NCBI GenBank assembly: GCA_963726245.1
Contig: CAVSBT010000031.1
Span: 1 to 64,000, forward strand
Direction of reading: 5' to 3'
DNA length: 64,000 bases
From: an uncultured Chloroflexia bacterium
GTDB taxonomy: Bacteria > Chloroflexota > Dehalococcoidia > DSTF01 > JALHUB01
The position numbers and the translations under genes are program-made. Of this stretch, positions 25,320-32,976 are shown one piece after another (positions within the stretch are counted from its first letter, which is position 1; every line of letters starts with the position of its first letter). The notes under the pieces were generated by a model. It was given only the letters and a program-made list of their open reading frames with translations. It did no database searches and was not told where the DNA came from.

Positions 25320-25651
25320 TCAGGGCGACGGCGAGGCCCCGGTCGATAGCACGCATGTCGGCCGCGGCATGGTCCCCAGGCGGCGCAGGATCAGAGCGCT
25401 ATGCAGGGTGGCGAGCTTGGCCCGGGCCAGAGACGGAGTCACCAGCCCGGCCTCCTGCCAAGCCACGATGCGATGGTCGCCCGGCCTTGGCGGGACCGCC
25501 AGCTTGCTGGTGATCTGGGCGATGATGACGTCGCGGAGGCCCTGTGGTAGGCATTGCTGCTCACCACGACCGCTGGCCTCTTCTTGGTGACGAGACGCTC
25601 CGAAAACGGGAACGGCACGAGGACCACGTCGCCCCGCTCATAGCTGGTCAT
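25320..25651 (-). CDS. PemK/MazF-family toxin (frameshifted)
   Basis: MTSYERGDVVLVPFPFSERLVTKKRPAVVVSSNAY..DVIIAQITS..AGLVTPS. Confidence 0.9.
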
Positions 25652-26071
25652 AGACAGAGTCCTCCGGGCTGTCCCACTCCTCCGCGAAGGAGGCCTCCGA
25701 CAGCTTTGCCAGAGCGGCCGTCTCCTCCAGACGCTCCGGCCCCTCCTGCCCCAGGCCCAGCTCCCGCACCGCCGCGGCGTAACTGAGTAGCGGACGCTGC
25801 CGCCCGGCAAGGGAAGCACGGACAGGTAGCCCTTCTTCACCTGCTGGCCCACCCACTGATACTGGGTGCCGCGCTCCCTCAGCGTGCGTGAACAGCCGTC
25901 TCTGGGCATGCTGTTGCCGGCCCAGTAGATCTCCTCCAGGACGGCCTTCCGCCGCTCGTAGGGATCCGGCTGCTCCTCCGACGAGCCCAGGAGAGCCTCC
26001 AGTCGGTCCAGAATGTCCCTGATGGCGCGCAGGCCCTCTCGCAGCTCGCTCACGATCAATCTGTTCGGCAT
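25638..26071 (-). CDS. Putative antitoxin (~145 aa, acidic W-D-x-P-E-D-x-x-Y-D-x-L C-terminus; frameshifted)
   Basis: RBS AGGAGG; overlaps toxin start; ends LSEASFAEEWDSPEDSVYDQL as in small antitoxins upstream of PemK genes. Confidence 0.7.
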
Positions 26072-26144
26072 TGGTGACCTCCTGTTATGCAATTGGTTAC
26101 CAATTGGTCACCAACATTCTACCGCCGTATCCCTCTGTCGTCAA
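26071..26144 (-). promoter_or_regulatory. Sigma70 promoter and tandem palindromic operators of the TA operon
   Basis: TTGACG(26144-26139)-17bp-TAGAAT(26121-26116); TTGGTNACCAA at 26093-26103 and 26104-26114, partial copy at 26071-26079. Confidence 0.8.
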
Positions 26145-27339
26145 GCCTTTTCTTCCTCCAGTTTCCCCAGCACCCCATCGATGATCTCCACCGCCCGGTC
26201 CAGCTCCTCCTCGCTCACCACCAGGGGCGGCATCAGGCGCAGGGCGGTCGGCTTCACGTTGTTCACGATCAGCCCCTCCTCCAGGCAGGCGCGCTGGGCC
26301 GCCTCCGCCAGCTCGCCGTCCAGCTCGATGGCCCAGAGCAGGCCGCGGCCGCGCACCTCCGTCACCAGCGGGTGGCGGTCGGCCAGGCTGCGCAGGCGGC
26401 GCTCCAGGTGCTGGCCCCTTGGCCGCCACCTGGCCCGGGATGTCGTTATCGATGACGTACTTCAGCACCGAGTAGCCCACGTGGGTGGCCAGCGGGTTGC
26501 CCCCGAAGGTCGAGCCGTGGTCGCCGGGCGACGAAGACGGCGCAGTGCTCCTTGGCCAGCAGCGCCCCGATGGGCACGCCGCCGGCCAGACCCTTGGCCA
26601 GGGTCATGATGTCGGGCTCGACGCCGTAGAGCTGGTGCCCGAACAGCGCTCCCAGCCGCCCGATGCCCGTCTGCACCTCGTCCAGGATGAGCAGGATGCC
26701 CGCCTCGTCGCACCAGGCGCGCACCTGGCGCAGGTAGTCGTCGTGGGGGACGTTGACGCCGCCCTCGCCCTGGACGGGCTCCAGCATCACGGCGCAGGTC
26801 TTGGCGTCGGTGGCGCGCCGGATGGCCTCCACATCGTCGAAGGGCACGTGCACAAAGCCCTCGGGCAGGGGCAGGTAGGGCAGCTTGTACTTCTCGGTGC
26901 CGCCGGCGGTCAGAGTGGCCAGGGTGCGGCCGTGGAAGGCGTGCTGGGCGCAGATGATCTCGTAGGCGCCGTCCCTCTTCTCCTTGCCCCACTTGCGGGC
27001 CAGCTTGATGGCCCCCTCGATCGCCTCGGCGCCGCTGTTGGCGAAGAAGACGCGATCCAGGCAGCTATTCTCCACCAGAAGCTGGGCCAGGCGAAGCTGG
27101 GGCACGCTGTAGACCAGGCTCGACACGTGGATGAGGCGTCGAGCCTGCTCCGCCAGAGCCGATACCACCACCGGGTGGCAGTGGCCCAGGCTCACGGTGG
27201 CGATGCCCGCCACGAAGTCCAGGTACTCCTTCCCCTGGTCGTCCCAGACGCGCACGCCCTGCCCTCGCACCAGGGTCACCGGCAGGCGCTTGTAGACGGA
27301 GAAGAAGTAGCGGCTCTCCAGCTCTTGCCAGTCGGTCAT
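26141..27339 (-). CDS. argD: Acetylornithine aminotransferase (frameshifted)
   Basis: YLDFVAGIA, NSGAEAIEGAIK, FHGRT, EPVQGEGGV, DEVQTGIGR, TLAKGLAGGVPIG, HGSTFGGNPL. Confidence 0.95.
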
Positions 27340-28142
27340 TGCGCCTCCTCGCTCCGGACCGATGATCGTGCCCGCCAGCTCGCCCCGCTCCACCGCCGCC
27401 AGCAGGGCGTGAGGCTGGCGGCCGTCGATGATGGCCGTGCGCGTCGCCGCCCGTCGCGGCCCGCAGGCAGGCCTCGACCTTGGGGATCATGCCGCCGGAG
27501 ACGACGCCTTCCTCCACCAGCGCCGCCGCCTCCTCGGCAGACAGGCGAGCCAGGGAGCGGCCATCGCGGCCGGCGATGCCGGGGACGTCGGTCAGGAAGA
27601 CCAGCCAGCGGGCGCCCAGGGCCAGGGCCACCTCGCCGGCCACGGTGTCGGCGTTGATGTTCAGGATCTGGTTCTGCGGGCCCTCGTCCTCCCACAGGAG
27701 GCCCAGGGGCGCCACCACCGGCAGGTAGCCCGCCGTCCAGCAGCCGCCGCAGCATATCGCCGTCCACCCGCTCGATCTGCCCCACGTAGCCCAGCTCGGG
27801 GTCCAGCGGGCTCACGCGGATCAGGGCGCCGTCGGCCCCCGACAGGCCGATGGCCGGCCGCCCAGGGCGTTGATGGCCGCCACCAGCTCCTTGTTGATCA
27901 GCCCGGCCAGCACCGCCACCACCACCCGCAGCGAGGCGGCGTCGGTGACGCGCAGGCCGCGCACGAAGCGAGTCGGCGTATCGTGCGAGCTTCAGCCACT
28001 CGCTGATGGCGGCGCCGCCGCCGTGCACCACCAGCGGCCGCCAGCCCTGCCCCTGGAGGGCCACCAGGTCCTCCAGGGTCGTGTCGTGGCTGCCCAGCGT
28101 GCTGCCGCCGATCTTGACCACCAGGATGGGCGATTCGCTCAT
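27336..28142 (-). CDS. argB: Acetylglutamate kinase (frameshifted)
   Basis: [39 protein letters not shown]. Confidence 0.95.
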
Positions 28143-28143
28143 G

Positions 28144-29379
28144 TCAGGTCGTGTAGGCGCTGTTCAGGCGCACGTACTCCTCGGTGATGTCGCTGCCCCA
28201 GGCGGTGGCCGCGCCCTCGCCCAGGCCCAGGTCCACGCGAATGTGCACCTCCGCGCGCCGCCAGGCAGGCGCGGGCCTGCGCCTCGTCGAAGGGCAGGGG
28301 CGACCCCTGCCGGTAGAAGCAGACGCCGCCTTCCCCGGCGCCGATAGCAGGATCACGGTCTTCTCCTCGATCATCTCGGCGCCGCTGTTGCCCACCGCCG
28401 CCAGGATGCGCCCCCAGTTGGGGTCGCAGCCGTAGACCGCCGTCTTCACCGCCAGCGAGCGCACCACCTCCCGCGCCGCCCGGCGGGCGTCCGCCGGCGA
28501 GGCGGCGCCCTCCACCCGCACTCGATGACCTTGGTCGCTCCCTCGGCGTCGGCGACGATGGCCTTGGCCAGGTGGACGCAGCAGCCTGGTCAGGGCCGAG
28601 CGGAAGGCGCCGGCGGCCGGGTGCCCTGCGTCGATGGGCTCGCCGCCGGCCAGGCCGTTGGCCAGGACGATGACCGTATCGTTGGTGCTGGTGTCGCTGT
28701 CCACGTCGATCATGTTGAAGGAGGCGTCCACCGCCTCCCGCAGGCAGGCGCGCCAGGTAGGGCTGGGCCAGCGGCGCGTCGGTGGTGATGAAGCAGAGCA
28801 TGGTGGCCATGTTGGGGTGGATCATCCCCGCGCCCTTGGCCACCGCCCACAGCGTGTACTCCTCGCCCTGGCGACCGCAGCGGCCGCCCGTCGCACTTGG
28901 GCCGCGTGTCGGTGGTCATGATGGCGCGGGCGAAGTCGGCACCGCCGCGCGGCCGAAAGCTCGATGCGCGGCACCGCCATCGCGCACCCGCTCCATCGGC
29001 AGGAAGGTGCCGATGACGCCGGTGCTGGCCACCAGCACGTCCTGCGGCCGGATGCCCAGCTTGGCCGCCGCCAGCTCGGCCATCTCGCGGGCGTCGGCCA
29101 GGCCCTGCTCGCCGGTGGCGGCGTTGGCGCAGCCGCTGTTGGCGACGATGGCCTGGGCGCGACCGTCGGCCAGGTGCTCCTGGCAGAGGAGGAGGGGCGC
29201 CGCCTTCACCCGGTTGCTGGTGTAGACGGCCGCGGCCGTGCACGGCGCCTCGGAGACAGGATGCCCACGTCCAGCTTGTCCGACGTCGGGCCGGATGCCC
29301 GCCCGGACGGCCCCCGCCAGGAAGCCCGCGCGGCAGGGGAACGCTGCCTTCGGGTGATCAATTCGCGCTCGTTGCTCAT
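28144..29379 (-). CDS. argJ: Ornithine acetyltransferase/N-acetylglutamate synthase ArgJ (frameshifted)
   Basis: [62 protein letters not shown]. Confidence 0.95.
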
Positions 29380-29394
29380 GATGGCCGACTCGCT

Positions 29395-30434
29395 CTACGG
29401 GTAGACGGCGGGCTGGTCGAGGCCAGTCGCCTCGGGGAAGCCCAGCATCAGGTTCATGTTCTGGATGGCCTGGCCCGCCGCGCCCTTCACCAGGTTGTCG
29501 ATGCAGCTCACCACCACCAGCCGGCCCGCCCGCACGTCCACCGTCGGGTAGACCAGGCAGAGGTTGTTGCCCCAGGTGTGCTTGGTCTGCGGCGGCTCCG
29601 GCACCACCCGCACGAAGGGCTCGTCCCGGTAGACCTCTTCGTACAGCTCGCGCACGGCCGCCTTCGCCCCCTCGCCCGCGGGCAGCCCGCCGTCGGCCAG
29701 GGAGGCGTAGCAGGTGGTGAGGATGCCGCGGGTCATGGGCATCAGGTGGGGCTGGAAGGTAACCCGCGGCGGGGTCGGAATCCGGCCAGAGGCGCGCCAG
29801 CTCCTGGACGATCTCCGGCAGATGGCGGTGGCCGCCCAGGGCGTAGGCCGACACGCTTTCGTTGGCCTCGGCGTAGTGGTAGGCGAGGCCCAGGCTGCGG
29901 CCGGCGCCGGACACGCCCGACTTGGCGTCGATGACCACGTCCGGCTCGATGATGCCAGCGCGGGCGGCCGGCGCCAGGGCCAGCAGCGCCCCCGTGGGGT
30001 AGCAGCCGGGGTTCGCCACCAGCCGCGCCTCGCGGACGGCGGCGCGGTGGAGCTCCGGCAGGCCGTAGACGGCCTGAGGCAACAGCTCCGGCGCCGGGTG
30101 CTCGACGCCGTACCAGCGCTGCGTACTCGGCGGCGTCGGTCAGGCGGAAGTCAGCGCTTATGTCGACCACCGGCAGGCCCCGCCGCACCAGCGGCGCCAC
30201 CGCCTCGGCGCTGGCGGCGTGGGGCAGGGCCGAGAAGGCGAAATCGACGTCGTCCAGCTCCTCGACGACCGTCAGGTCCAGCGGCCAGAGGTGGGGGAAG
30301 ACCTGCGCCAGCGCCTTGCCGGCGGCGCTGCGGCCGGTGACGCAGACCACCTGCGCCTCCGGGTGCAGATAGAGGAGGCGGGCCAGCTCGGCGCCGGCGT
30401 AGCCTGTGACGTTTATGATGCCAACCTTGACCAT
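29395..30434 (-). CDS. argC: N-acetyl-gamma-glutamyl-phosphate reductase (frameshifted)
   Basis: NVTGYAGAEL, ALPH, DISADFR, VANPGCYPT, SGVSGAGR, HRHLPEI, DNLVKGAAGQAIQNMN. Confidence 0.96.
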
Positions 30435-30496
30435 ATCTGCCGTTCCTAGGCCCCTCACTATACTCAGGGCCTCTTCGCTGGACAACCCAACCCCCG

Positions 30497-30531
30497 AACA
30501 AACAAAGCGCCCCACCGCGACGTGGTGGGGC
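30497..30531 (-). terminator. Intrinsic terminator (attenuator 3:4 hairpin) upstream of argC
   Basis: mRNA GCCCCACC-ACGUCGC-GGUGGGGC followed by GCUUUGUUUGUU. Confidence 0.8.
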
Positions 30532-30561
30532 TTAGCGAAGAGCGTTCTACGGCTCGGTGGG

Positions 30562-30663
30562 CTATCCGGGCGGCGTCGTGCGGCAAGCACCCCCACGCCA
30601 CTGGGAGCGACGTCGCTCTCGTCGGAGGGGCGCCTGCTGCTGGACAGCCGTCATCGGAAGCAT
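30562..30663 (-). CDS. Putative arg-operon leader peptide MLPMTAVQQQAPLRRERRRSQWRGGACRTTPPG (33 aa, 7 Arg)
   Basis: ATG lies 6 nt after the -10 box (leaderless); control codons CGA CGA GAG CGA CGT CGC; overlaps alternative helices and precedes the terminator. Confidence 0.7.
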   Translation of the reverse strand: MLPMTAVQQQAPLRRERRRSQWRGGACRTTPPG

Positions 30664-30669
30664 GGGCCA

Positions 30670-30698
30670 ATGATAGAAGCCACCGGACAACGTGTCAA
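30670..30698 (-). promoter_or_regulatory. Sigma70 promoter of the arg leader
   Basis: TTGACA(30698-30693)-17 bp-TATCAT(30675-30670). Confidence 0.85.
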
Positions 30699-30771
30699 GA
30701 GCTACTCACAGCGGTCTTGTCTCGCCGCCTGCCCGCACGTCTGTAACCGATTCGTTCCTTCGGCGTCTTAA

Positions 30772-32976
30772 GTGGTGAATAGCAATACCGCTTCAGAAGT
30801 GCCAACAGGCCAGGGCACGCGCTGGCCCACGCTCGTCGACGGACGTTACCGGACACACAACAAGTGCGACGACAAATCGAGGCGCTCCGCCAGCTGGCAA
30901 GCTCGCTGTAGAGAGCCCTGCCGGGAACGAGACCCTTGCCCGCGCGGCCAGCATCATCCGCAAGGCCACCGGTGCAGGCGAGGTGCTACTGGTCTATGCC
31001 GAGGACCAGGAGCTTTCTCACCTGCTGCGATGCGGCGGATGGCCCACGCGCCGACCTGACGCAGGGTGCCCTGCGGTCGTCCAGCGTCACACCGCGCAGG
31101 CGAGCGGGCCGGTGGCCTTCAACCTGGTAGGTCACCCGGGTCGAGGACTTCACCAGCGCCCTCAGCGGCGACCAGCGTGAGTTCCTGGGCGTTCTCCGTG
31201 CCCACCACTGAGAGCGCATCCGAGATCTGCATCCTCCGGGGCCCCTGGGAGCAAGAGGCCACGCTCGCATCCTGTGCTTCATGGAATCGGCGACGCCCGC
31301 TCTCGCCGTCATCCTGGAGCGTTTCCTCAACGCCGGTCGCGGCCAGCGCCTGGCCCAGCAACTCCAGACCCTGGCCAACGCGGCCCAGGTGCTCACCCGA
31401 TCAGAGGATGTGGAGGCGGCCCTGAGAGACCTGGCGACCGCTATCTCCGCGGCTACGGGTTTCGAGTACATAGTGAACATCGATCTTTACGACGCTCCTA
31501 CCGGCCGCTTTGTCCTCCGCATCCTGAGCGACCACCGCCATACTGCGAAGACCCTCGGGCAGATCTGGGGGGCTAGCCTGAACCCCGAACAACCCGACCC
31601 CTGGGACACAGAAGTGATGCGCGCTCTGCAGCCGAGGTTCTCTCCCGACATGCAAAGCGATCCACTATATCCAGACCATGTGCGGAAGTTCTACGCTCGC
31701 GCCCTACTCAGGTCTGCAGTGGACTTTCCCCTGCTGTTTCAGGACGAGTTCCTGGGTACGATGAGCTTCGTCTCCTTCAAGCCCCGTACGTTCTCGCCGG
31801 AGGAGGTCAGCCTTCTCCAGGGTTTTGTCAGCCAGACCGCCATGGCTCTCAAGGCGCTGCAGATGCACACGGACCTGCAGCGGTACGCGCAAGAGATCAA
31901 GAGATCCGCCGACCAGTACATCGCTACCACGAATCTAACAAGCGACATCATTGCGAAGCTCGATGCCCGCGGCAACTGGGTCTTCCTCAACGACGCCGCT
32001 TGCCAGTTCCTCGGAGGGCCTAGGGAGGCACTTCTAGGCGCTGACTCTGCGGCTTGGGTGCACCCCGATGACCGAGAGCTGACCGCCCAGACGGGTCCGA
32101 GACACGAGAGCGAAGCGAGGGCTCACAACAGGACTTGTGAACCGCATGGTCACACCGGTGGGAACGAGGGTGGTGGAATGGGACGGCTACCCTCTCTTCG
32201 ACAACGAGGGCCTGTACATCGGGATCCAGATGACCGGCCGTGACATCACCGAGCGCAGGCGAAATGGAGGAGGAGCGGGAGAGACTGTACGCCGAGCTGG
32301 AGGGAAGGGCAATCACCGACGGCCTCACCGGCCTCTATAACCACGCCCACTTCTACCAGCGCCTGCGCTGAGGAGATAGACCGCTCCAAGCGGTACAGTC
32401 GCGGATTCGCCGTGGTCATGATGGATGTCGACAACTTCAAGCGCTTCAACGACTCCTGCGGCCACCAGGCCGGTGACGAAGTGCTGCGCCTCGTTGCCGA
32501 CGGCATCCGGTCAGGGATGAGACGGTCCGACCTCGCCTTCCGCTACGGCGGCGATGAGTTTGCGGCCATCACTGCTGCACGCCGACTCAGCAAAGGCACG
32601 GACGGTGATCAGCCGCATCAATAGGCGCATCACCAAGAGGTTGAACAGATGACCGAAGGCTACCGGTGATCTGGGCCTCAGCGCCGGCGTCGCCTGCTTC
32701 CCCGGCGACGGGACAACCGTAGACGAGTTGGTGCGGATAGCAGATGCCGCCCTGTACGATGCGAAGCGGCTGCTCAAGGGCCCGCGCCGTCGAGGCACTC
32801 GCGTTGGCGGGCGCTTCTTCAGCAAGCTAACGGAGAGACAACGAGCCGCTCGCGAAGCTCCCCGGAAACGCCCACACCTCGCGGTATGCCCTGTCGAGCG
32901 CCGCCCGTCGCGCTCGCTCTCGAATGGGCGTAGCGCACACCGGAAAGCAGTCCGAAGGAGCCGGAAGAGCACATAG
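30772..32976 (+). CDS. GAF-PAS-GGDEF diguanylate cyclase (frameshifted; ends uncertain)
   Basis: GAF ([22 protein letters not shown]), PAS (FLNDAAC..VHPDDRE..GRDITER), [36 protein letters not shown]-site, RYGGDEF. Confidence 0.85.

Follow-up and report, generated by a model that had tools for sequence, protein, structure and literature searches.

A conserved candidate arginine leader-peptide attenuator in front of argC in Dehalococcoidia

Arginine biosynthesis in bacteria is the textbook example of control by a repressor (ArgR), while ribosome-mediated attenuation is the textbook control for His, Trp, Leu, Thr, Phe and Ile/Val. The enterobacterial attenuators trpL, hisL, leuL, thrL, pheL and ilvL have a short ORF in which codons for the amino acid made by the operon are clustered, mutually exclusive anti-antiterminator, antiterminator and intrinsic terminator structures, and the cognate operon directly downstream. 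Short upstream ORFs tied to arginine or ornithine metabolism are also found in the fungal arginine attenuator peptide (AAP) and in E. coli SpeFL, both of which detect the free amino acid via the nascent peptide and target translation or Rho. The attenuators listed in the consulted portions of two publications are those for His, Trp, Leu, Thr, Phe, Ile/Val and Cys, with none for arginine (PMC3766115; PMC1262725), and the known controls of bacterial arg genes include Arg-specific T-boxes according to the same portion of the latter.

Among the described systems, the leader orf34 of Salmonella speF is a bacterial upstream ORF whose consecutive Arg codons tie ribosome progress to arginine supply and thereby change the folding of the downstream mRNA, as described in the consulted part of PMC6386406. 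Leaderless leader peptides have been proposed for attenuation in Deinococcus deserti (PMC4007540), and the ilvB1 uORF of Mycobacterium tuberculosis has the regulatory codons LVVI, an antiterminator and a Rho-independent terminator (PMC13236596). The main texts of these two papers, the parts consulted, deal with other phyla and with Cys, Trp and branched-chain amino acids, and do not mention arginine; the supplementary list of 14 D. deserti peptides may hold an Arg example. Our search of the freely available literature found no leader-peptide attenuator of arginine biosynthesis. The terms arginine, argC, argG, Chloroflex and Dehalococc are absent from PMC2965389, and PMC4997734 was set aside as a precedent, as it concerns pyrimidine-dependent carA attenuation.

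Here we describe a leader in front of argC in the window, i.e. the whole stretch of 64,000 nucleotides of an uncultured Dehalococcoidia genome that was analysed. Judging from its sequence and that of its relatives, this leader most probably works as a ribosome-mediated transcription attenuator: it would sense charged tRNA-Arg and thereby set how much transcription from promoter P1 reads through into argC-argJ-argB-argD...argG. The features of the locus are as follows.

30693 to 30698, minus strand: −35 hexamer of P1, TTGACA, kept in 19 of the 20 family members (TTGACT in L046)
30670 to 30675, minus strand: −10 hexamer of P1, TATCAT, after a 17-nt spacer; the ATG lies 6 nt further on at 30663
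30562 to 30663, minus strand: leader ORF MLPMTAVQQQAPLRRERRRSQWRGGACRTTPPG, 33 codons plus TAG (30564-30562), read from the sequence
30626 to 30637 (nt 27-38), minus strand: segment 1, GCAGGCGCCCCU, C-rich, predicted by folding to sequester segment 2
30607 to 30624 (leader nt 40-57), minus strand: putative regulatory Arg cluster CGA CGA GAG CGA CGT CGC (RRERRR); an in-frame cluster occurs in 20 of 20 members
30583 to 30601 (nt 63-81), minus strand: segment 2, GUGGCGUGGGGGUGCUUGC, the G-run, which can pair with segment 1 or segment 3
30509 to 30531, minus strand: terminator hairpin, with segment 3 GCCCCACC (30531-30524), loop ACGUCGC and segment 4 GGUGGGGC (30516-30509)
30497 to 30508, minus strand: U-rich tail GCUUUGUUUGUU, from the sequence and a pattern scan
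30457 to 30485, minus strand: second promoter P2, TTGTCC-17-TATAGT, between the terminator and argC, with 9 of 12 consensus matches
30444 to 30447, minus strand: Shine-Dalgarno sequence of argC, AGGA, read from the sequence
29398 to 30434, minus strand: argC (N-acetyl-gamma-glutamyl-phosphate reductase), from full-length homology in three frames

Most of these elements had been proposed in a preliminary description of the same DNA, which read the leader as an arginine-sensing attenuator; this reading gains support from the comparison of relatives and from constrained folds. P1 (TTGACA-17-TATCAT), the ATG 6 nt on and the 33-codon ORF were all recovered at the minus-strand coordinates given there. 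In the pattern scan, P1 matches the promoter consensus at 11 of 12 positions, and two promoter-like sites (P1 and P2) were observed where 0.1 are expected from 50 shuffles. Transcription from P1 should start at or adjoining the A of the ATG, which would make the message leaderless; the ORF has no Shine-Dalgarno sequence and begins at the predicted 5' end of the transcript, so that the front of the leader holds a short ORF with an apparently usable start. The 8-bp GC terminator with its U-rich tail (30531-30497) was likewise found by the scan as the only such site (0.5 expected from 50 shuffles), with a stem at 30531-30509, seven GC pairs and the tail GCTTTGTTTG. Thus an intrinsic terminator lies between the leader ORF and the first structural gene, and the codon cluster is one for the amino acid of the downstream operon.

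The operon runs argC-argJ-argB-argD, a PemK/MazF-like pair, argG. The gene order argCJBD(GH) given earlier therefore stands for argC-argJ-argB-argD and argG and fails for argH, which is not found downstream of argG in the operon. Frameshifts are present in argC-argD; the frame of argC breaks near 30122 and 29765. One base is missing there in all 11 contigs from related organisms that cover 30122, and from these sequences the break there looks like an assembly error.

Arg-rich upstream ORFs and matching helices were indeed found when the regions upstream of argC were compared among relatives. Nineteen other Dehalococcoidia genomes and seven metagenome contigs have the window's design upstream of argC, giving 27 sequences with the window; these sequences are related, and the counts below are not independent events. 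The shared design comprises a promoter, a leaderless ATG, an in-frame Arg cluster, the G-run and a GCCCCACC/GGUGGGG terminator. A CCCCACC...GGTGGGG hairpin was found upstream in 15 of 111 argC loci, and all 15 have a promoter of the type TTGACA-17/18-TAnnnT, an ATG 6-10 nt on and an ORF with an Arg cluster. We then built a covariance model from 10 of these 15 leaders. It matched only the window copy in the window's own genome, and gave six matches in a sample of 150 other Dehalococcoidia genomes, five before argC and one false (L127). Over 98 sources it returned 20 sense-strand leaders, the family analysed below; a further 18 matches were rejected, 16 as antisense or partial matches of the same terminators and two as weak. 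At the phylum level, covariance model R1 gave two matches in 150 other genomes, both of them false. The 19-mer of segment 2 recovered 34 metagenome stretches, of which 27 were unrelated places and seven were window-type leaders (33-codon ORF, terminator and P2); the 19-mer is identical in L041 and these seven copies.

The 20 leader-bearing rows of a 114-row ArgC tree fall into one clade of 25 (SH-aLRT 98), and none of 500 label shuffles was as tight; a single origin of the family is compatible with this tree. Five members of the clade have no leader. A search with the 265-nt leader DNA in 40 relatives returned the window and eight short matches with E above 1e-4, none before argC, and no leader was present at 31 argC loci of taxonomic relatives, since the window's argC is not closest to the family of its bin.

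The geometry at the 5' end is conserved in the family. The −10 box is TAnnnT and the ATG lies 6-10 nt downstream in 20 of 20 members, and the same holds for the six metagenome copies in which the promoter region is present. ORF lengths range from 21 to 44 codons across the 20 members; the 33-codon frame of the window leader is complete in L131, L132, L135, L145 and L146, and the copy in L150 ends at the contig end. The first Arg of the cluster varies by subfamily (nt 40, 46, 34, 25 or 22-28), the distance from the ATG to the cluster changes in steps of three, and the frame of the ATG is held in all 20. Among close relatives the Arg codons change from CGA to CGG, CGA to CGC and CGC to CGT, all synonymous, with a single CGC to CCT, and the lone non-Arg codon inside the cluster changes from E to A; across the leaders, the Arg codons change mostly synonymously and include AGG. 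In L055 a CCG to CCC and GCG to GCC pair is both synonymous and compensatory in helix 1:2. Moreover, CGA makes up 45 of 87 Arg codons (52%) in 15 leaders versus 22 of 220 (10%) in 14 of their argC genes. It had been called rare in the genes around the window leader, and in agreement with this it accounts for 10.9% of the Arg codons (5766/52959) in 1146 long ORFs of the window's genome.

The total number of Arg codons carries no such signal. An Arg-rich frame is cheap in DNA of 67% GC; the three frames of the window leader hold 7, 7 and 2 Arg codons, the ATG frame being no richer than the others, and the count per frame was dropped as a discriminator. Relatives often have Arg-rich open frames upstream of argC as well, these being neighbouring genes read out of frame.

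The leader RNA was then folded. The minimum-energy fold of the 169-nt leader contains helix 1:2, the pairing of nt 27-38 with nt 70-81 (30637-30626 with 30594-30583) over 12 bp with three G-U pairs, just as the preliminary description had it; the helix is part of a longer hairpin that is followed by the terminator. This fold has a z-score of −3.0, and one of 200 shuffles was equally stable. A ribosome stalled on the first Arg codons would cover segment 1 with its footprint. We modelled such a ribosome by masking positions −15 to +12, its A site being set at the cluster's second Arg. In these masked folds segment 3 pairs with the G-run at most 30 nt past the mask in all 20 leaders, so that a stalled ribosome is predicted to let an antiterminator form from the 5' arm of the terminator. 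In the window, this antiterminator 2:3 joins GUGGCGUGGGGG (nt 63-76) to CCCCACC and the terminator loop; the pairing proposed earlier thus exists, in a register slightly different from the one written then. The constrained folds reproduce the 1:2 / 2:3 / 3:4 logic that had been suggested.

A strict two-state switch was obtained in 12 of 20 leaders versus a mean of 1.25% of 60 dinucleotide shuffles of each; for the window leader, 0 of 60 shuffles behave in this way. In eight of 20 leaders, segment 3 is not free when the truncated RNA is folded without a ribosome. Before segment 3 exists, a C-rich stretch further upstream ties up the G-run in 16 of 20 leaders, and the window's folds contain the anti-antiterminator 1:2. 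The energy of the window's 2:3 duplex is matched by 15% of mononucleotide shuffles and is not unusual alone. When segment 4 is added to the masked RNA, 19 of 20 leaders favour the terminator state at equilibrium (−52.4 vs −39.0 kcal/mol in the window); therefore antitermination can work only kinetically. Lee and Yanofsky reportedly found the same order of stabilities for trp in 1977.

All 15 aligned leaders have an identical terminator stem, CCCCACC/GGUGGGG, and its motif recurs in all 20 members and in the five metagenome copies that reach it, while the loop varies in sequence and length. As the stem is invariant, no covariation can come from it. RNAalifold on a MAFFT alignment of the 15 leaders recovered only the terminator and three pairs of 1:2; since the 5' halves have diverged too far for alignment, the folds were analysed sequence by sequence. 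The stop codon always lies between segments 2 and 3, 24-43 nt ahead of segment 3, so a ribosome at the stop leaves segment 2 uncovered, and helix 1:2 re-formed behind the ribosome has to do the sequestering.

From these sequences we infer a transcription start, translation of the ORF, stalling and a response to arginine, which would act together as follows. RNA from P1 would start at or within 1-3 nt of the AUG, and a 70S ribosome could load there with no need of a Shine-Dalgarno sequence. With ample Arg-tRNA, this ribosome would pass the Arg cluster and reach the UAG, and segment 1 would re-pair with the G-run behind it; segment 3 (GCCCCACC) would then be free to pair with segment 4 once this is made, and RNA polymerase would stop at the U tract. 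When Arg-tRNA is scarce, the ribosome would stall on the first Arg codons, mostly rare CGA, with its footprint over segment 1. The G-run beyond the footprint would be free as segment 3 emerges, the antiterminator would pair, the terminator would come too late, and argC would be transcribed. Transcription from P2, downstream of the terminator, would give attenuator-independent expression, to which the attenuator would add a component induced by starvation.

The second promoter had been raised as a caveat in the preliminary description, rightly, since P2 is present and conserved in the subfamily (L131, L135, L145, L146 and L163). The proximal promoter of L041-L045 and L047 is its homologue, and sister lineages in which the leader was lost have no other promoter. 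Given a conserved P2, the attenuator cannot be the sole control of argC here and governs P1 transcripts only. P2 was found only in the window/L041 subclade. In the other 18 family members, the gap between terminator and argC had no promoter-like site where searched, and the shortest gap to the argC ATG, 22-25 nt, leaves no room for a promoter; in these members the leader must consequently be the 5' part of the argC mRNA.

As for other regulators, the absence of argR noted before agrees with a search of the 83%-complete bin, which has no match to the ArgR Pfam domains PF01316 and PF02863; this result is valid for that bin, and the contig may not belong to it, which makes statements on ArgR and tRNA for the window's genome weak. 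PF02863 is also absent from 10 related genomes, and with 0 of 5 leader-bearing and 0 of 5 leaderless genomes the presence of ArgR was rejected as the feature that divides the two groups. No T-box had been seen either, and no match to RF00230 was found at the window or at 12 leader-bearing loci. Rfam gave nothing relevant at E up to 10 between 29500 and 31500, T-box included, and at the gathering score nothing matched the 12 loci, Trp_leader, His_leader, Leu_leader, Thr_leader and T-box included; the Rfam leaders share no sequence similarity with the argC leader. Public sequencing runs yielded only short contigs from relatives, at 90-99% likeness; the best run has 21% of the words and none has half. 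The single RNA run (5% of words) covers only conserved parts of argC, with nothing from 30439-31108.

Compared with the enterobacterial attenuators, the locus differs in its amino acid, arginine, in a leaderless ORF without a Shine-Dalgarno sequence, in a second promoter behind the terminator and in a ribosome that at the stop would not cover segment 2. Compared with orf34, as far as the part of PMC6386406 consulted goes, that leader controls ornithine decarboxylase for polyamine synthesis and not arginine synthesis, is read out through RNase G sensitivity, Rho termination and access to the ribosome-binding site instead of an intrinsic terminator, and has two Arg codons, a conserved 34-codon peptide and a Shine-Dalgarno sequence. 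ArgR/AhrC and the Arg T-boxes share the target and the signal (arginine, or tRNA-Arg charging for T-boxes), but here no ArgR domain was found in 11 genomes and no tRNA-binding specifier architecture is present.

The leader can be explained in other ways. The switch might be set by an arginine-responsive RNA-binding protein or a small ligand on the conserved CGACGnCCnCGA / G-run region, with the ORF a by-product of the helices, and several observations fit: C-rich and G-rich helix strands automatically give CGN codons in one frame, two or three frames have similar Arg counts, conservation of the window-type ORF in its 5' part extends to all three codon positions, as under an RNA-level constraint, and no known arginine regulator was found in the genomes searched. 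We nevertheless regard it as unlikely, because the ATG keeps its 6-10 nt from the −10 box with the Arg cluster in frame in 20 of 20 leaders despite length changes, the Arg codon changes are mostly synonymous with AGG included, the stop is always between segments 2 and 3, and the leaders have neither an Rfam match nor a conserved multi-stem aptamer-like core. A nascent peptide acting like AAP or SpeFL, with free arginine sensed in the ribosome exit tunnel and translation arrested as a result, without codon-level sensing, would suit the basic and partly conserved RxRRPRP / RRERRR motifs, whose Arg-Pro runs are plausible slow spots. Arrest at high arginine, however, would free the G-run and turn a biosynthetic operon on, a response of the wrong sign; outside the Arg codons the subfamilies have little peptide sequence in common; and the CGA bias (52% vs 10%) points to decoding speed. 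An arrest peptide is thus highly improbable, and the leader fits codon-level sensing joined to an intrinsic terminator, unlike AAP and SpeFL.

The stretch from P1 to the terminator could also be an independent unit, a small RNA of ~165 nt or a gene for a 33-aa peptide, with argC expressed from P2. Sister lineages have indeed no promoter other than P2, which is conserved in the subfamily; the strong terminator dominates thermodynamically; and the window-type copies share a fairly conserved peptide. Against this, the unit is found solely before argC in 20 of 20 genomes and as a single copy in the window's genome, the 18 members outside window/L041 have no promoter-like site of their own in the gap where searched, and across subfamilies the peptide keeps little beyond the Arg cluster and the GG that follows, all of which makes this reading very unlikely. 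That an unrelated promoter-like site, open frame and terminator came together by chance in a GC-rich spacer is scarcely credible: the frequent Arg-rich frames upstream of relatives' argC would allow it, but the comparative data already contradict it, with the whole arrangement conserved in 27 sequences, P1 at 11 of 12 consensus positions where 0.1 sites are expected, and switch behaviour in 0 of 60 shuffles of the window leader.

With attenuation by charged tRNA-Arg as the preferred reading, it is likely that a clade of Dehalococcoidia without ArgR keeps arginine synthesis under an undescribed family of classical attenuators, in which a leaderless mini-gene reads tRNA-Arg charging through rare CGA codons. 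The tandem attenuated and unattenuated promoters of the window subfamily suggest two tiers, basal expression and a boost on starvation, and the sister lineages with the second promoter alone suggest that the switch was discarded there. Attenuator only, attenuator with a second promoter, and second promoter only form a natural series for the gain, bypass and loss of a switch. The family is absent from Rfam, where a covariance model could be deposited. If the reading is true, a conserved Arg-codon attenuator would fill a gap among the amino acids under ribosome-mediated attenuation, would be a compact, protein-free arginine sensor of ~170 nt, and would provide leaderless leader peptides with a well-populated example beyond Actinobacteria and Deinococcus. 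It would also explain how the arginine pathway is regulated in uncultured Dehalococcoidia that have no ArgR.

The leader elements that the preliminary description placed before argC on the minus strand are real, and the promoter, the Arg-containing ORF, the hairpin with its U-rich tail and the second promoter were all found there. An attenuator working through the Arg codons of a leader peptide is the best-supported explanation of this predicted leader, and a very probable one. Its features, all within the window, are the following.

30698-30693, minus strand: -35 element TTGACA of P1, the promoter before the leader ORF (sequence read), 17 nt from the -10 element
30675-30670, minus strand: -10 element TATCAT of P1 (sequence read), then 6 nt to the ATG at 30663
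30663 (ATG) to 30562 (TAG), minus strand: leader ORF of 33 codons, MLPMTAVQQQAPLRRERRRSQWRGGACRTTPPG (sequence read)
30624-30607, minus strand: Arg cluster CGA CGA GAG CGA CGT CGC, within the leader ORF
30531-30509, minus strand: terminator hairpin GCCCCACC-ACGUCGC-GGUGGGGC, with tail GCUUUGUUUGUU
30485-30457, minus strand: second promoter (P2) TTGTCC-17-TATAGT, then AGGA and the argC ATG at 30434

A consensus scan returned just P1 and P2 as promoter-like sites (0.1 expected) and the leader hairpin as the one terminator-like site (0.5 expected). In the predicted fold of the 169-nt leader (z = -3.0), a long 5' hairpin precedes the terminator, and this hairpin contains the 12-bp helix described at the outset between the C-rich segment 1 and the G-run, segment 2. 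The nearest upstream gene is divergent and encodes a GAF-PAS protein (31281-32243, plus strand), so the terminator is not the end of an upstream gene. Between P1 and this gene lie about 580 nt (30700-31280) in which neither a convincing ORF nor an Rfam match was seen. Rfam searches also gave no relevant match at the window leader and none in 12 leader-bearing loci.

Among taxonomic relatives of the bin, 31 argC loci were inspected and none has the leader; at several of them a proximal TTGcCy-17/18-TATACT is the sole promoter. A search with the ArgC N-terminus, using one genome per species, added 80 loci to give 111 in all, and a CCCCACC...GGTGGGG hairpin precedes argC in 15 of them, the window counted. 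Each of the 15 shows TTGACA, then TAnnnT after 17-18 nt and an ATG 6-10 nt further on; each also has an ORF of 24-44 codons that contains an Arg cluster, and beyond it a G-run and a terminator. Arg-rich upstream ORFs, which had been proposed as a check, are present in relatives, in these 15 loci and in five more recovered by a covariance model (R1) built from ten of the 15 leaders. The five came from a class-level sample of 150 other genomes, each directly 5' of argC; a sixth match was false. In a phylum-level sample of 150 other genomes, R1 found no leader and two matches, both false, and in the window's own genome the window copy was the sole match. Over 98 sources (loci L105-L120 left out), R1 gave 20 sense-strand leaders. 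Moreover, the segment-2 19-mer retrieved 34 metagenome stretches, seven of which are window-type leaders (four of them complete, the other three truncated where the contig ends) with P2 and a 33-codon ORF as in the window, for example MLPMTAVQQQVPLRRERRPAHRRGGACRMVPPG; their terminator stem is constant and their loops are variable.

We then consider the predicted folds of RNA ending before segment 4, the terminator 3' arm. In the window, segment 1 sequesters the G-run (nt 63-81) when no ribosome is present, leaving segment 3, the terminator 5' arm, free. Masking nucleotides -15 to +12, as for a ribosome with its A site at the first three Arg codons, shifts the pairing of the G-run to CCCCACC and the terminator loop. 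The 1:2, 2:3, 3:4 logic proposed earlier was upheld by such masked folding: with the mask on the cluster's second Arg codon, segment 3 pairs with the G-run just past the mask in 20/20 leaders, and strict two-state behaviour is seen in 12/20, versus 1.25% of dinucleotide shuffles (0/60 for those of the window). Upstream sequestration of the G-run prior to segment 3 occurs in 16/20. The position of segment 1 depends on the subfamily, either just 5' of the Arg cluster or overlapping the last cluster codons, and each arrangement places it within the footprint of a ribosome stalled at the cluster. Once segment 4 is present, 19 of the 20 leaders are more stable in the terminator state, therefore the antiterminator must win by forming first. 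In the trp attenuator, likewise, the terminator is more stable and the antiterminator must form first. Since the leader stop codon lies 24-43 nt 5' of segment 3, a ribosome at the stop would leave segment 2 uncovered, and termination would follow from helix 1:2 re-forming behind the ribosome.

Several sequence-level arguments speak for translation of the leader ORF. An ATG stands at the expected 5' end of the P1 transcript in 20/20 leaders, and its distance from the Arg cluster varies between subfamilies, always in multiples of three. Close relatives show the Arg codon changes CGA>CGG, CGA>CGC and CGC>CGT, with one CGC>CCT, and the sole Glu codon of the cluster becomes Ala; in locus L055, CCG>CCC and GCG>GCC are synonymous and compensate each other in helix 1:2. 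CGA accounts for 45 of 87 Arg codons in the leaders versus 22 of 220 in the argC genes of 14 of these genomes, and its reported rarity in surrounding genes agrees with 10.9% of Arg codons in the long ORFs of the window's genome. Against translation, total Arg in the ATG frame is not above that in other frames, and in the 5' part of the window-type ORF all codon positions are conserved, a pattern that points to RNA-level constraint. The 57 tRNAs of the 83%-complete bin include tRNA-Arg anticodons CCT, CCG (two), TCT, TCG and GCG, and none with ACG, an absence unusual in bacteria if the set is complete. CGA may then be decoded by one UCG isoacceptor, which is only a lead because the bin is incomplete.

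The ArgC tree comprises 114 rows, namely 113 loci whose frame reaches 300 aa or more and the window, in which X bridges its two breaks; shorter, truncated rows were left out. One clade of 25 holds all 20 leader-bearing genes (SH-aLRT 98), and its five leaderless members (L042-L045, L047) adjoin the window and locus L041. These seven share the P2-type promoter. The simplest reading is that the attenuator was ancestral to the clade, that the second promoter then arose behind it in one branch, and that some lineages later lost the attenuator. P2 is strongly kept in window-type metagenome copies, where the distance from the U tract to P2 differs by 0-52 nt, and what the attenuator can control in the window is limited by this conserved promoter. 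A proximal TTGcCy-17/18-TATACT, 25-60 nt before argC, recurs in leaderless Dehalococcoidia (L011-L013, L015, L042-L045, L047), which suggests a common argC promoter, differently regulated or constitutive. The terminator-argC spacer is also a hot spot of short repeats: L041 (2400-2500) has a tandem 26-nt duplication immediately 5' of argC, and metagenome copies L131, L135, L145 and L163 carry, between U tract and P2, inserts of 0-52 nt with repeated GCCTGCCCTGAGCC-like units. Locus L045 (JAIVWR010000060.1) is labelled Acidobacteriota, and its ArgC and upstream region are nearly identical to those of Dehalococcoidia L044; its contig is probably misbinned.

Downstream of the leader the order is argC, argJ, argB, argD, a small gene pair and argG. 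The argCJBD(GH) operon of the preliminary description thus stands except for argH, which was not seen in the genes downstream of argG in the window. The small pair (25323-26092, minus strand) lies within the operon, and its second member shows a PemK/MazF-like toxin domain, a Pfam match at the cut-off (E = 8e-5). Single-base indels split argC, argJ, argB and argD (26100-30434, minus strand) into two or three frames each. Compared with its closest homologue argC is complete, its pieces each 79-87% identical, and two single-base breaks interrupt it, near 30122 and 29765. The former looks like an assembly error, not gene decay, because the 11 contigs from related organisms that span this position all lack one base. 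The source genome is a Dehalococcoidia bin (83% complete, contamination 6.3%) with a second argC (G000:C27:103504-103794), 72% identical over the N-terminus, before which R1 found no leader. Because this copy groups with the bin's own family in the ArgC tree and the window copy with other Dehalococcoidia, the window's contig would be either misbinned or horizontally transferred.

No ArgR domains were found in the window's bin or in ten related genomes, leader-bearing and leaderless. In the full-text literature, the full D. deserti leader-peptide list excepted, we found no description of a leader-peptide attenuator of arginine biosynthesis: PMC2965389 had no term match bearing on one, and none appeared in the accessible portions of PMC4007540, PMC3766115, PMC13236596, PMC4997734 and PMC1262725. 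The known RNA-level control for arginine, as far as the available text of PMC1262725 goes, is the T-box. Among the nearest published cases are the leaderless leader peptides of Deinococcus deserti (PMC4007540) and Salmonella speF orf34, in which two Arg codons adjust how the mRNA folds (PMC6386406). The window leader would represent a known type of switch in a new variant, for arginine.
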